Source: Candidatus Eiseniibacteriota bacterium
GTDB lineage: Bacteria > Eisenbacteria > RBG-16-71-46 > CAZAMP01
NCBI GenBank assembly: GCA_965224245.1
Contig: OZ245046.1
Span: forward strand, 5,728,001 to 5,792,000
DNA: 64,000 nt
Direction: 5' to 3'
A program made the translations under genes and the position numbers. Below the pieces are notes generated by a model that saw only the letters and a list, made by a program, of their open reading frames with translations, did no database searches and had not been told where the DNA came from. Positions 25,330 to 38,202 of the stretch are shown here, piece after piece. How positions within the stretch are numbered: the stretch's first letter is position 1; each line of letters opens with the position of its first letter.

Positions 25330-26016
25330 TCAGTACATCTGACGCAGACGGCTCCACGAGGTCTCGGTGATCGGCGTCCCCATCAGATCGCAGGTCTTGC
25401 AGGTCGGCCCACTACCGTCGACCGAACCGACCGACCAGCCCGTCGGCGGCACCTCGAATTGCTGGGGCTCGAACGGGGGATGGTAGCCGCTCGCGATGTA
25501 CGCGGCTCCGATCCGAGGATCGTCGATGATGGCCAGCCGACCGGCGCTCCCCGCGGCGATGGTGAGGTACCCGACCTTGGCGAAGCCGCTCGGCTGCATG
25601 TAGTCCGCGGATCCCCACGTCATCGCGTTTCCGGTGTGGCTCTCGGGCCACGTCCCGTTCTCGTCGTCCTGTGGGATCTCGTTGCCACCGGTGCAGAGCG
25701 ACCAGCTCAGAACGTCGACCGTGGGATCGTACTCGATGCCGAACTCCACGCCGCCGAGGCCGGGACCGATCGGCCACCCCGGGATGTTCTCCCATCCGTA
25801 GGTGACGAGCCACGCGAACTGATCGACGCCGGTGGCCCCGGCGGCGGCGAGCGCGTCGCAGTCGAGAACGTCGTCGTCGAGCTGGCTGCAGCCGGCGTAG
25901 GAGGCGTCCTCGAAGTGGACCACGAACCCGTACTCGTTGCCCGGGCAGTCACCCTGAGCCAGAGCGGAGGTGGACACGAGAGCGAAGAGGATCAGGATCG
26001 ATGCTGTGAGACGCAT
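25330..26016 (-). CDS. Exported protein with C-terminal TPITETSWSRLRQMY tail
   Basis: GGGAGG RBS; signal peptide MRLTASILILFALVSTSALA; several Cys. Confidence 0.75.
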   Translation of the reverse strand: MRLTASILILFALVSTSALAQGDCPGNEYGFVVHFEDASYAGCSQLDDDVLDCDALAAAGATGVDQFAWLVTYGWENIPGWPIGPGLGGVEFGIEYDPTVDVLSWSLCTGGNEIPQDDENGTWPESHTGNAMTWGSADYMQPSGFAKVGYLTIAAGSAGRLAIIDDPRIGAAYIASGYHPPFEPQQFEVPPTGWSVGSVDGSGPTCKTCDLMGTPITETSWSRLRQMY

Positions 26017-26277
26017 GGCGAGCCTCCCGATTGAATGATGAAGTCCCGGAGGGACACGCATGATTTCACGGTGTCTCGGCATCGTCAACGTAGGGGTGCG
26101 GTCCGGGTCGAATCCTCACGCGACGGGATGCCGGGTCGAGCCGTCGCCGAGGCGAATCGGGCCGTCGCGTTCGCGCGCAGACGAGAAACGGGGCCGGCAC
26201 CTCGAGCGCCGACCCCGTCGTCAACCGAAACGAGGGCGAGCGCTCCGTGCGCTCGCCGATGAACGGAGCGGGGACGT

Positions 26278-27927
26278 CTAGAAGCCGCCCATGCCGCCCA
26301 TACCGCCCATGTCGTCCATGCCGCCGCCGCCACCGGGCGCCGGCTTCTCCTTCTCGGGGACCTCGGTGATGAGGGCCTCGGTGGTGAGCATGAGCCCGGC
26401 GATGGACGCCGCGTGCTGGAGCGCCGACCGGGTCACCTTGGTGGGATCGATGATGCCGGCCTCGAGCATGTCGACGTACGTGGCGCCGGCCACGTCGTAG
26501 CCGTAGGACTTCTTGCCCTTCTTGACCTCCTGCACCACGATCGAGCCCTCGATGCCCGCGTTGTAGGCCAGCGTCCGGAGCGGCTGCTCGATCGCCCGCA
26601 GCACGATCTGCACGCCGATCTTCTCGTCGCCGCCGGCCGCGAGCTTCTCCAGCGCGCTCGCGCACCGGATCAGCGCCACGCCGCCCCCGGGCACGATCCC
26701 TTCCTCGACCGCCGCCCGCGTCGCGTGAAGCGCATCCTCCACCCGCGCCTTCTTCTCCTTCATCTCCGTCTCGGTCGCCGCGCCCACGTTGATCACCGCC
26801 ACACCGCCGGCCAGCTTCGCCAGACGCTCCTGGAGCTTCTCGCGGTCGTAGTCACTGGTCGTCTTCTCGATCTGGGCGCGGATCTCGCTCACGCGACCGG
26901 TGATGTCGGCCTTCTTGCCGCCACCCTCGATGATCGTCGTGTTGTCCTTGTCGATCGTCACCCGCTTCGCCTGACCCAGGTCGTTCAGCGTGATGTTCTC
27001 CAGCTTGATCCCCAGATCCTCCGACACCACCGTGCCGCCGGTCAGGATCGCGATGTCCTGAAGCATCGCCTTGCGACGATCCCCGAACCCCGGGGCCTTC
27101 ACCGCACACGTCTGCAGCGTCCCCCGCAGCTTGTTCACCACCAGCGTGGCCAGCGCCTCGCCGTCCACGTCCTCGGCAATGATCAACAGCGGACGCCCCG
27201 ACTGCGCGATCTGCTCCAGGACCGGAAGAAGATCCTTCATGTTCGAGATCTTCTTCTCGTGAAGCAACAGGTACGCGTTCTCCAGCGAGACCTCCATCGC
27301 CTCCTTGTCCGTCACGAAGTACGGCGACAGATACCCGTTGTCGAACTGCATCCCCTCGACCACGTCGAGCGTCGTGTCCATCGACTTCGCTTCCTCGACC
27401 GTGATCGTCCCGTCGCGTCCCACCTTGTCCATCGCCTCGGCGATGATCTCCCCGATCGTCAGATCTCCGTTCGCCGAAATCGACGCCACGTTCTTGATCT
27501 GCTCCGACTCCCGCACGTTCTTCGACAGCTTCTGAAGCTCGACGGTGATCGCCTCCACCGCCTGGTCGATCCCCCGCTTCAGCGCCATCGGGTTCGCGCC
27601 CGCCGTCACGTTGCGAAGGCCCTCGCGGAAGATCGCCTCCGCCAGAACCGTCGCCGTCGTCGTCCCGTCACCGGCCACGTCCGACGTCTTCGACGCCACC
27701 TCGCGCACCATCTGCGCGCCCATGTTCCGGTACGGCTCTTCCAGCTCGATCTCCTTGGCCACCGTCACCCCGTCCTTGGTGATCGTGGGAGAGCCCCACT
27801 TCTTGTCGATCACCACGTTGCGGCCGCGCGGGCCAAGCGTCACCTTCACCGCCTTCGCCAGCATCTCCACGCCTTCGAGAATCGCGTGGCGAGCTTCTTC
27901 CTTGAACAGGAGTTGCTTTGCACTCAT
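26278..27927 (-). CDS. groL: Chaperonin GroEL
   Basis: [32 protein letters not shown] and C-terminal GGM repeats. Confidence 0.99.
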
Positions 27928-35934: not shown

Positions 35935-37203
35935 ATGCGGCGATTGCAAGGGTCTGTCCTGGCGCTCTCGGTGGGGATGCTGGGGTGCGGAGGCGGAACG
36001 GTTCCGCCGCGCCATCCGGACGTCGAGCCGCCGAGCCCCGTCGAGGACGCTCCGATGACCGAGCCGGCCGACGCCGACCAGGAGACGCGAGCGGACGACG
36101 ACGACGCGCCGCTGCCCGCGTGGGTACTGGGTGGCCGGCCACATCCGGTCTATCGGGCGCCGGCGTACCGGGTCGCCGTCGCGTCCGACCGACGCGAGGC
36201 GGTGGCCGACAGCGTCGCACGCGCCCGTGTCCGCGCCGACGTCCTCGACGCCCTGGACGGTGCGCAAGCGGCCGCCCAGGCGGTGCACGCCTACTTCTCG
36301 CTCGGCGAGGACTTCGCCGGCCACGTGGCCGGCGACCTCCGGTCGTCCGGCGGATCCCTCGCCGTGCTGGACTCCCTGATCCGCATCGCCCCGGAGACGC
36401 GCGGGCGGTATCTCGGCGCGCACTATGCACTGGCCTATCTGGATGCCGACGAGGCCGAGGCCGTCCTGGGCGCGCGGGCCGCCGAGATGCGTGCGCGGGT
36501 GGTGGACGCCTGCGATCGGGCCGAGGACGCGTACCGCGGGCAGAACTGGTTCGAGTTCGCGCGCTGGTCTCGGGCCGCACTGGGCCGGGAGGCCGACCGG
36601 ATCGCCATCGAGCTCCTGGCCTACGCGTCCGATCGGCGCGCCGCCGCCGCGCCCGACTCGGCCCGCGGTGCGCGGTGGATGCCCGAGCCGCGGCTGCTCG
36701 ATCTGCGCCCGGCCGCGCTCCAGATGATGGACACGCATGGCTGGAGCCTCGACGTGGTGTTCGACTGGCCGCCCGACACCGATCCGCGCCCGCTGGAGCC
36801 CCGCATCCGCCAGCGTCTGATGCAGTATCTGCTGGACATGGGTCTTCACGTGGGGCTCGGCTCGGGGTGTCCTCAGCCGATTCCGTCCGAGGACGGAGTC
36901 ACGTTCGAGCCCCCGCCGCCTCATCACATTCTTCACGTGGCGATTGCCGGCGCCCAGGACCGGCTGGTGGGGCAGGGATGGCGCGCCACGCTCACGTTCG
37001 ACGTCCGCGCGTCGACGTGCGACGCCGGGGTCGTCGTGACCGAGCGACGGGCGGCCGAGCTGGCGAGCTTCCATCCCCGTGATCCCGATGCCGCGATGTG
37101 GCGCGTGGCCCGGCTCGCCGATCTGGAGTCGAGCCTGGACGAGGCGCTGTCGCGCGTCGATCTGATCATCCCGGCCGAGGTCTTCCTCGGCGTGGCCGGC
37201 TGA
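35935..37203 (+). CDS. Hypothetical lipoprotein
   Basis: MRRLQGSVLALSVGMLGC lipobox; Pro/acidic linker followed by a PAWV motif. Confidence 0.65.
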   Translation: MRRLQGSVLALSVGMLGCGGGTVPPRHPDVEPPSPVEDAPMTEPADADQETRADDDDAPLPAWVLGGRPHPVYRAPAYRVAVASDRREAVADSVARARVRADVLDALDGAQAAAQAVHAYFSLGEDFAGHVAGDLRSSGGSLAVLDSLIRIAPETRGRYLGAHYALAYLDADEAEAVLGARAAEMRARVVDACDRAEDAYRGQNWFEFARWSRAALGREADRIAIELLAYASDRRAAAAPDSARGARWMPEPRLLDLRPAALQMMDTHGWSLDVVFDWPPDTDPRPLEPRIRQRLMQYLLDMGLHVGLGSGCPQPIPSEDGVTFEPPPPHHILHVAIAGAQDRLVGQGWRATLTFDVRASTCDAGVVVTERRAAELASFHPRDPDAAMWRVARLADLESSLDEALSRVDLIIPAEVFLGVAG

Positions 37204-37416
37204 TCCGGGCAACCCGACCTCTCCGTTCCCGCCGATTGCCCCTGCCCGCGCGTGTGCCCACGGCGTATACTTCTCGCGCCTGTGGCGCGCCCCCGGACCC
37301 CGTCGTGCGCCCGAGCCGTCTCGGCGCGCGACTCCGAGCCCCGGACCCGATTTCCCGACGTCACGGCCGAGCACGCGCTCCCGGCCGCGAGGTCGGTCAT
37401 GCGAGGACGACTTCCG

Positions 37417-38202
37417 ATGACCATACGACTTGCGTCCACGGCCGCGGTGGTGACGCTCTGCCTTTCGGCCCCGCCGGCGGCGGCCGGCTTCCTGGTGGCC
37501 CAGGCGGTGGGCGAGCACATCGTGGCCATCGACACCGAGACCGGCGAGGTCGTGTCGACCTACACGATGCCGACCACGGTCGGCGAGTCTGCGCAGTCCA
37601 TCGCGACCGACGGCACCCGGTATTTCGTGACCGACGCCGACGACGGGTCGCTGTGGAGCATCACCGACAGCTTCTACGGGGCCGAGCGGATCGGCGACCT
37701 CCCCGCGGCGACCCCCAAGGGCATGACGATGTTCGACGGCGAGCTGTGGCTCATCGGCCAGGCCTCCGTCGGCGACGATCGACTTCACGTGCTCGACCCC
37801 ACCACCGCGGCCGAGCTCCGGAGCTACGTCATCCCCGCGGAGGTCAATCTGACCGCCGATCTCACGTCGGATGGCGAGCACCTCTGGGGGGTGGACGTCG
37901 CGGCGAGGAAGCTCTGGCGGATCCAGCCCTCCGACGGGTCGCTGGACCTGTCGTTCGATCTTCCCGCATCGGGGACCGTCTTCGCGCTGGCGTTCGATCC
38001 GGACACCGACCAGCTCTGGTTCTTCCGGAACGGCGCGCTGGCCGCTTTCACGATCGACCGCACCACCGGCGACTACACCGAGGCGTTCTCGCTCGCGGGT
38101 GAGGACTTCGCGTTTCTCTTCTCGGCGGTCTATCGATCCGAGGTGGTGCCGACCCGAACCGCGAGCTGGTCGGCGCTGAAGGGGGCCTACGGCGGGCGCT
38201 AG
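37417..38202 (+). CDS. Exported beta-propeller-like protein with C-terminal VPTRTASWSALKGAY tail
   Basis: Signal peptide; repeated xDG..LW and ID..TG blades. Confidence 0.75.
   Translation: MTIRLASTAAVVTLCLSAPPAAAGFLVAQAVGEHIVAIDTETGEVVSTYTMPTTVGESAQSIATDGTRYFVTDADDGSLWSITDSFYGAERIGDLPAATPKGMTMFDGELWLIGQASVGDDRLHVLDPTTAAELRSYVIPAEVNLTADLTSDGEHLWGVDVAARKLWRIQPSDGSLDLSFDLPASGTVFALAFDPDTDQLWFFRNGALAAFTIDRTTGDYTEAFSLAGEDFAFLFSAVYRSEVVPTRTASWSALKGAYGGR

Follow-up and report, generated by a model that had tools for sequence, protein, structure and literature searches.

The window, the whole 64,000-nucleotide stretch of Eisenbacteria DNA analysed here, contains three genes for exported proteins that end in similar peptides (Table 1). 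The sequence-only reading that drew attention to these proteins quoted the three tails, and each was found to be an exact translation that lies in a real gene and is directly followed by a stop codon. All three proteins have the signal-peptide-like start ascribed to them, and their bodies are unrelated, as had also been stated: they fall into three different BLAST families, and the alignment of protein 1 with protein 2 (E 0.06) is confined to the tail. Pfam and NCBIfam scans with protein 1 gave no match, and the nearest Atlas clusters of protein 2 are hypothetical proteins, one of them with a cohesin on 16% of its members.

Table 1. Tail-bearing genes in the window, a contrasting neighbour and the candidate reader operon
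Feature	Position	Strand	Remarks
Contrast neighbour: exported protein ending in T9SS-like (FlgD_ig-type) C-terminal domain	23403..25160	-	PF13860 E 0.008; PorZ C-terminus E 1e-5
Tail-bearing exported protein 1	25330..26016	-	228 aa; Cys-rich; in largest body family (22 proteins)
Tail 1, TPITETSWSRLRQMY-stop	25330..25377	-	matrix score 36.5
Tail-bearing exported protein 2	35135..35770	+	211 aa; singleton body
Tail 2, LPVQTKSWSAIRKFFSDDTL-stop	35708..35770	+	matrix score 25.7
Tail-bearing exported protein 3	37417..38202	+	261 aa; beta-propeller-like; DUF6923 repeat, PF21959 E 3.6e-7
Tail 3, VPTRTASWSALKGAYGGR-stop	38146..38202	+	matrix score 33.9
Candidate reader operon (locus L360)	G000 C1:5851127-5854529		outside the window; single-copy; barrel and two SnoaL/NTF2-like lipoproteins

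The three tails belong to a motif of about 16 residues with the consensus [TV]P[VTI]xxx[ST]W[GSA]x[ILV][KR]xx[YF]R, and the chains that carry it mostly end in Y-R or are longer. Three copies in 64 kb had been taken to imply many more in the genome, and indeed 112 of the 4,831 called proteins, about 2% of the proteome, end in this tail. The core [ST]W[GSAT]x[ILVMF][KR] matches 149 times in the called genes, 111 times within the last 22 residues, which make up 5.5% of all residues. With a position matrix, 112 terminal hits reached a score of at least 20, and only two interior hits reached at least 14. Because of these counts, the expected enrichment at C-termini is not due to chance. An origin as DNA repeat or mobile element was rejected, since the Ser position is encoded by varied codons (AGC 47, TCG 26, TCC 10, and in addition Thr codons) and the 40 nt after the stop show at most 0.36 bit per base. 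The designation of the tail as an amphipathic helix was not supported: in its 9-residue core the helical hydrophobic moment is 0.31, no higher than the 0.32 of shuffled cores, and the label rests only on the spacing of W, I and Y. No Pfam or NCBIfam model matched the tail (4 and 40 proteins scanned), in agreement with the view that it is not part of a described family, and nothing on the tail or on the barrel discussed below was found in literature other than subscription journals and supplements.

The tail-bearing proteins carry 52 different body families. A signal-like start, called by a hydrophobicity rule, is present in 97 of the 112 proteins compared to 1,114 of 3,041 soluble controls, which bears out the proposed co-occurrence with signal peptides. 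A lipobox is rare (3 of 112, compared to 116 of 563 other signal-peptide proteins), and the sequences are often disulfide-rich. The domains of the bodies (beta-helix, LTD, Calx-beta, PKD, VWA and GEVED) are those of type IX secretion system (T9SS) cargo. Of 110 tail-protein bodies, 100 were classed as similar to those of proteins with a T9SS C-terminal domain (CTD), compared to 85 of 563 controls. Only one of the 112 bodies exceeds 500 aa, compared to 248 of 439 in the CTD proteins. The proposal of a lineage-specific sorting signal stands in its second half, supported by the C-terminal position, the signal-peptide proteins and the unrelated bodies, but not in its first: the motif is present in 138 of 151 genomes of the phylum and extends over several uncultured phyla, namely Eisenbacteria, Krumholzibacteriota, Latescibacterota and neighbours.

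The tripartite signals LPXTG, PEP-CTERM, GlyGly-CTERM and MYXO-CTERM are likewise short conserved motifs with a basic end that lie close to the C-terminus in a wide variety of unrelated exported proteins. The tail shares these traits but differs in that none of the 112 proteins has a hydrophobic helix after residue 45, confirming that a membrane segment is missing, so the sortase, exosortase and rhombosortase architecture of motif, transmembrane helix and basic cluster is not present; an NCBIfam match was likewise not found. An outer-membrane beta-signal for BAM was rejected, since the bodies are soluble domains and the ends are mostly Y-R or longer.

A close likeness is to the T9SS type A CTD (TIGR04183/PF18962, here in the FlgD_ig-like form PF13860), which works with PorV, PorU and SprA. 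Like the tail, it is located at the C-terminus of Sec cargo, and the two have cargo domains, composition and a junction with a [TVI]-x-V start in common. In contrast to the tail, the CTD is an Ig-like beta-sandwich of 70-100 residues. A local CTD profile found 442 proteins in this genome, none with a tail, and none of the 112 tail proteins matched this profile; PF18962 and PF13860 did not match any of the 40 tail proteins scanned. The two are thus never found on one protein here, and the tail is confined to small cargo. Homologs of 32 tail proteins from nine families have a CTD at the same junction, and these sequences show the tail to be a portable module standing in for a T9SS-like CTD. There are 56 metagenomic proteins in which a T9SS domain follows immediately after the motif, an arrangement that a stand-alone route leaves unexplained; in this genome, none of the 439 CTDs is preceded by a tail. 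The idea that the tail belongs to the CTD fold was rejected on the latter count and because the tail is not packed in the model. Export by piggy-back on a stand-alone CTD carrier was also rejected, since the short CTD proteins are only fragments and small cargo.

The tail might also represent a fourth class of type IX signal, picked up by a PorV-like barrel and passed on by SprA, with the operon described below being an accessory of this route or lost in parallel. The swap at one junction and the motif before the CTD would fit, and the machinery is co-resident: this genome encodes SprA, a PorU above the NCBIfam cut-off beside PorV, and seven PorV-family genes above the cut-off, one of which (C1:1500532) stands alone and is conserved in five of five genomes by best hit. 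SprA matches were obtained in 48 of 50 genomes tested, and a 22-residue CTD piece is described as enough for GFP secretion in P. gingivalis (PMC4804311). GldM had no match at E 1 in this genome, and GldN had none either, with a GldN control that likewise matched nowhere. The distribution speaks against this explanation, since in a related phylum, that of genome G154, SprA is found in 51 of 51 genomes but the tail in only 16 or 17; we regard it as rather unlikely.

For T9SS type B with its PorP/SprF barrels, a second signal is described that has a barrel partner of its own (PMC10202324), and the tail is similar in this respect. The type B signal is given there as more than 200 residues with a cognate, usually adjacent barrel, whereas the tail genes have no adjacent barrel and one distant operon would be common to all; PF13585 and TIGR04131 did not match the tail proteins scanned (4 and 40). 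Among 287 neighbours of tail genes no barrel recurs, and the only recurrent families are of the type of kinases and sigma factors, so a gene neighbour was rejected as reader. This also applies to the Rex repressor, the constant neighbour of the client gene in the phylum with a single client.

New here is a candidate reader of the tail. It is an unannotated operon for a barrel and two lipoproteins, located 59 kb outside the window, and was reached via the motif itself. One lipoprotein 1 has 37 relatives, every one of which ends in [SA]W[ASC]DLKxx[YF]x, and some other lipoprotein relatives have canonical tails. A core score of at least 8 was obtained for 8 of 56 and 3 of 31 lipoproteins, compared to 2 of 2,000 background proteins. 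Most lipoproteins have only a degenerate motif, with an alignment probability of 4.8% between the tail and unselected lipoproteins, and lipoprotein 1 of this genome ends in TIGAFW.

The third component was modelled as a barrel of 28 strands with neither plug nor periplasmic domain (pLDDT 90.9) and is thus predicted to be a very large plugless outer-membrane pore. Profiles of the barrel and the lipoproteins did not match PDB sequences, and the barrel of this genome had no NCBIfam match and only one or two weak rows in Pfam. The nearest solved fold is MtrB (Z 18.2, rmsd 8.8, 492 aligned), followed by SprA (Z 15.7) and LptD (Z 11.8), with a TM-score of at most 0.44; compared with MtrB, LptD, SprA, TonB-dependent and Omp85 proteins, this is generic barrel similarity without a family match.

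In the phylum of G154, a single invariant client gene ending in TWGKIKALF[KR], the barrel (strong match, E 1e-42 or better) and the lipoprotein pair are present in the same 16 of 51 genomes, at separate loci. On the rpoB tree this pattern requires four changes, in 200 of 200 bootstrap trees, and a sign test on these four independent contrasts gave p = 0.125, with all contrasts from one phylum; the profiles had been built in part from 5 or 6 of these 16 genomes. Tail loci led to 24 genomes, and the barrel was detected in 20 of them as well. Without a barrel match are G162 (eight tail matches, lipoproteins also unmatched), G166 (nine tail matches), G060, G064 and G154, which has one tail and no lipoprotein match and is incomplete, since rpoB is not matched either. 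Family f6 was rejected as a tail-negative control since it keeps 0-5 canonical tails per genome. Unlike the type A CTD, the tail follows a barrel different from SprA, and this co-occurrence suggests that it may depend on the single-copy operon and not merely on SprA. That an unseen factor such as a periplasmic chaperone, a protease or an envelope polymer reads the tail, the operon sharing only pathway or history with it, is very improbable: only a handful of candidates were profiled and the co-loss is based on four events, but the operon was not picked from a list, three separate markers lead to the same 16 genomes, and no other family recurs next to tail genes.

We consider it somewhat probable that a dedicated outer-membrane machine works beside the type IX system and that the tail is a short linear address for it. 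By sequence, the clients are small, Sec-exported non-lipoproteins with the make-up of surface cargo, on which the portable tail replaces the CTD; a barrel complex may read it, binding and transporting small folded proteins in parallel to the T9SS. The W-G-x-I-K-x-x-Y-R core might fold on binding and dock in a site of the barrel-lipoprotein complex, and the lipoproteins' own terminal motif might fill this site at rest or tie the lipoproteins to the barrel. The empty barrel would then let out single-domain folded clients, which could be the reason why tail clients are small and large cargo uses CTD and SprA. A complex prediction with a 30-residue tail, the barrel, lipoprotein 2 (1-170) and lipoprotein 1 without its terminal motif (1-153) gave a median of 0.61; controls with replaced partners gave 0.00 and 0.00 and that with a replaced barrel 0.67. 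This result speaks neither for nor against the reading: the score may stem from a kept chain, and the truncation of lipoprotein 1 may have exposed a site that is artificial. The lipoproteins may also be clients instead of readers.

Alternatively, the tail could be a docking tag and not an export signal, with the clients as exchangeable subunits of the barrel-lipoprotein complex in the periplasm or at the surface, for example as binding proteins for an import pore. The motif on the operon lipoproteins themselves, the similarity to MtrB, a barrel that houses a partner protein, and the subunit-like retention of a single client in one phylum are consistent with this. One barrel gene would, however, have to serve 112 clients stoichiometrically, and the client bodies are T9SS-cargo domains that exchange with an export domain, which makes a docking tag clearly unlikely.

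The dedicated machine can be worded more specifically, as an undescribed secretion system of uncultured FCB-related phyla in which two NTF2-like lipoproteins gate a 28-stranded outer-membrane barrel for the export of folded single-domain proteins that bear a 16-residue C-terminal peptide, itself derived from the C-terminal helix of one of these lipoproteins; this version is tentative and falls a little short of probable. A signal on about one in fifty proteins had no assigned machinery, and the three-gene candidate makes it testable without culture of the host. If folded export on such a tag is true, it would add a route to the short list for outer membranes, provide a display tag far smaller than the T9SS domain and allow thousands of hypothetical proteins to be annotated as surface cargo.

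Among known large barrels, MtrB has 26 strands and SprA 36. For the LptD of Bacteroidota, 27 strands are described (bioRxiv 10.64898/2026.10.03.756453). The candidate resembles these three as a large barrel made of one chain, whose interior a partner would fill, and differs in its 28 predicted strands, the missing plug and periplasmic domain and the low TM-score. Short C-terminal signals read by a dedicated membrane transporter are also found in Slam/type XI and type I secretion. Unlike these systems, the candidate operon is without a TPR or ABC component, and the tail clients carry Sec signal peptides, with few lipoproteins among them.

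The three tail peptides that a sequence-only reading had picked out in the window are present (see table) and end three unrelated signal-peptide proteins. It had expected many copies genome-wide, and with our own gene calling (4,831 genes) the genome under study (6.94 Mb, 97% complete) indeed holds 112 terminal tails. The window covers positions 5728001-5792000 of its contig C1. For one of its proteins the named relatives come from Candidatus Eisenbacteria, so that the genome presumably belongs to this phylum. The last 22 residues of the called genes contain 111 of the 149 motif matches, and in a position matrix the 112 terminal matches scoring 20 or more, used here as the tail set, are set apart from the rest, with two interior matches at 14 or more. 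In the consensus [TV]-P-[VTI]-x-x-x-[ST]-W-[GSA]-x-[ILV]-[KR]-x-x-[YF]-R the W is invariant, the P is found in 107 tails and the K/R in all 112; selection acts on the tail as protein, not as DNA. An amphipathic helix, which had been proposed for the tail, was not confirmed, since the helical moment is no higher than that of shuffled sequences. One gene has its tail 48 residues ahead of the stop, the stop codon after the normal tail probably having been lost.

When alternative starts were allowed, a signal-like hydrophobic stretch was found in 97 of the 112 tail proteins versus 1,114 of 3,041 controls (71 versus 805 with the called start only), and all 112 lack any later membrane helix. Their bodies fall into 52 families. 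Most of the 40 bodies scanned with Pfam had no match; the matched ones carry beta-helix, PD40, cytochrome c, Calx-beta, LTD, Omp28, GEVED, VWA, CBM or PKD domains. By composition, 100 of 110 tail bodies resemble cargo of the T9SS-like C-terminal domain (CTD); among the remaining signal-peptide proteins 85 of 563 do. Lipoboxes are scarce in both tail bodies and CTD cargo. The K/R content is 3.8% in the 54 tail bodies without a CTD-bearing homolog, 4.8% in CTD cargo and 10.8% elsewhere. A size above 500 amino acids is reached by one of 112 tail bodies versus 248 of 439 CTD bodies. Immediately upstream of the first tail gene of the window, on the same strand, lies groES-groEL, probably a chance neighbour.

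The tail was found on none of the 442 CTD (FlgD_ig-type) proteins of this genome, and homologs of 32 tail proteins from 9 families carry a CTD at the identical junction. In 56 distinct metagenomic proteins, presumably from Poribacteria, the motif stands immediately before the NYPNPFNP of the T9SS domain. A model of such a tandem gives the motif a pLDDT near 50 without packing on the domain, the behaviour of a flexible linear motif. Sequence comparison shows a motif that is portable, ends small cargo of the surface type, and is mutually exclusive and interchangeable with the T9SS domain. Two further window proteins end in a T9SS-like domain.

Within the phylum of the window, 138 of 151 genomes contain the strict DNA pattern (control matches: at most one per genome). 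A scan of the genome collection gave at least 121 loci; among the matches listed, 41 are named Eisenbacteria or Eiseniibacteriota and one more has such a name with a strain suffix; further taxa are Latescibacterota, Krumholzibacteriota, Effluviviaceae, Cloacimonadota, Zixibacteria and Coatesbacteria, while two listed loci (a Neobacillus, a cyanobacterium) lack an in-frame match. The Zixibacteria phylum, that of genome G154, has the DNA pattern in 31 of 51 genomes, mostly as chance matches, and 16 of the 51 carry one small-bodied gene with the invariant end TWGKIKALF[KR], the bodies having only 29-86% identity to the first row. In 13 of the 16 loci (L342-L357) the gene for this single client, a transthyretin-like domain of 140 aa, directly follows that of the redox repressor Rex.

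Two other pattern matches in this phylum are lipoproteins ending SWA[DE]LKxxYR, an end of a type common to 37 of 37 relatives. The nearest Atlas clusters are unnamed, from Rhodothermota and Ignavibacteriota, and the nearest named folds, NTF2/SnoaL at 0.82-0.84, are a lead only. The gene of these lipoproteins is part of the candidate reader operon, which encodes a 640-aa outer-membrane protein, lipoprotein 1 and lipoprotein 2; Pfam and NCBIfam searches with the three proteins gave nothing above noise. The AlphaFold model of the 640-aa protein has 28 strands without a plug (pLDDT 90.9, pTM 0.76). Among solved structures it comes closest to generic barrels, with MtrB at the top (Z 18.2, rmsd 8.8, 492 aligned) and a TM of at most 0.44. 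The barrel profile matched 556 cluster representatives at E 0.001. Lipoprotein 1 usually ends [TS]-[WLF]-G-x-L-[RK], and the full tail, after a low-complexity linker, often ends lipoprotein 2 or its paralogs. Profile-profile comparison of the tail with the lipoprotein 1 end gave a probability of 4.8% with an unselected 56-row alignment and of 71.7% (E 3.5e-5) with 16 rows picked after viewing their ends. Additional lipoprotein paralogs or remnants are located apart from the barrel gene, and another genome (G223) has a tandem of operon-type paralogs with canonical tails.

Positions of the features discussed
Feature	Sequence	Position	Remark
Tail 1	window	25330..25377 (-)	
Tail 2	window	35708..35770 (+)	
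Tail 3	window	38146..38202 (+)	
groES-groEL	window	26278-28306	
cbb3-type oxidase cluster	window	48643-56812	
T9SS-like domain proteins	window	57375-59093; 63210-64000	
Candidate reader operon	C1	5851127-5854529	single copy
Lipoprotein paralogs or remnants	C1	1846459; 2289063; 6262203; 3833966; 2840378	one with weak tail end
Tail ahead of stop	C1	6267449-6268267	
L166, porU-porV operon	C1	2561916-2575925	
L169, ExbB/ExbD run	C1	4762826-4773761	
L172, PorV-family gene	C1	1500532-1501512	

The sequence-only reading had suggested looking for transporters or peptidases co-distributed with the motif. Strong barrel matches occur in exactly the 16 of 51 genomes with the TWGKIKALF[KR] client, and the lipoprotein pair in the same 16 and in 0 of 35 others. 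Six of the 16 had fed the barrel profile and five the lipoprotein profile. Three more of the 51 have weak barrel-profile matches to other proteins, and the client, with a profile built from the 16, is absent from the 35 save weak partial matches in 7. Because the loci differ, a single deletion could not remove both client and operon. The rpoB tree (50 of the 51 genomes) has four label changes, and four independent pairs are concordant (p = 0.125). In the phylum of the window one query found the barrel in 75 of 151 genomes, and a profile re-test of 26 of the 76 misses found it in 21; it was also found strongly in one more genome and weakly in two.

Since the genome under study encodes SprA, PorU (above cut-off, adjoining PorV) and seven PorV-family genes above cut-off, a further T9SS signal was the first reading of the tail. 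The literature describes the CTD as a beta-sandwich of 67-88 residues (PMC11285876), of which the last 22 residues are enough for GFP export, with sequence-independent cleavage (PMC4804311); a type B signal requires its own barrel (PMC10202324), and Poribacteria had CTDs with the pathway not found at that time (PMC3909097). However, SprA is present in 51 of 51 genomes of the Zixibacteria phylum and the client in 16, and we consider this reading doubtful: as co-occurrence, the tail is gained or lost together with the barrel operon, not with SprA.

Several T9SS-related loci were observed. L169 is a run of genes for a CTD protein, a PorV-family barrel extended at its C-terminus, a TPR protein of 1,042 aa that matches PorW/SprE weakly, ExbB/TolQ, two ExbD/TolR and one TonB protein. 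This run may energise a T9SS-like system; searches of the genome found neither GldM nor GldN (the GldN control also matched nowhere). In L166 the core operon porU-porV precedes two barrels that have no annotation, an NHL lipoprotein, a protein of 1,071 aa that resembles SprA over a short stretch, and an Omp85-like barrel; the locus is partly kept in Coatesbacteria, with two tail genes just downstream. The stand-alone gene L172 (top match PorV2, 141 bits, under cut-off) is kept across the phylum without an adjoining cargo gene.

The tail is now linked to a testable three-gene candidate machine. The barrel operon probably reads the tail in some way. In the reading that, as a whole, we favour slightly, the tail motif would bind the complex of barrel and lipoproteins, and single-domain clients would leave through the empty barrel. 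A docking tag without transport, in which the tail would bind and the barrel would export nothing, seems improbable. Of 24 genomes reached via tail loci, 20 have the barrel; those without it are G154, G162, G166 and the cyanobacterium matched by chance, and G060 and G064 lack a match as well. These genomes are drafts, yet for now they count against the favoured reading. A different reader we regard as very unlikely.

The tail is real and undescribed within the literature searched (subscription papers and supplementary tables lay outside its scope), which held no account of tail or barrel; two recent Bacteroidota papers concern other barrels (PMC12611786; bioRxiv 10.64898/2026.10.03.756453).

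The 26 small contigs of the assembly (C2-C27) have a G+C content of mostly 0.57-0.66 versus 0.69 on C1, and C5 carries a near-exact repeat of a C1 tail gene; possibly, these contigs are strain variants or contamination. Judged by translations only, the window also contains a gene cluster for a cytochrome oxidase of the cbb3 type (ccoG, ccoP, ccoQ, fused ccoNO, ccoS, ccoI-like).
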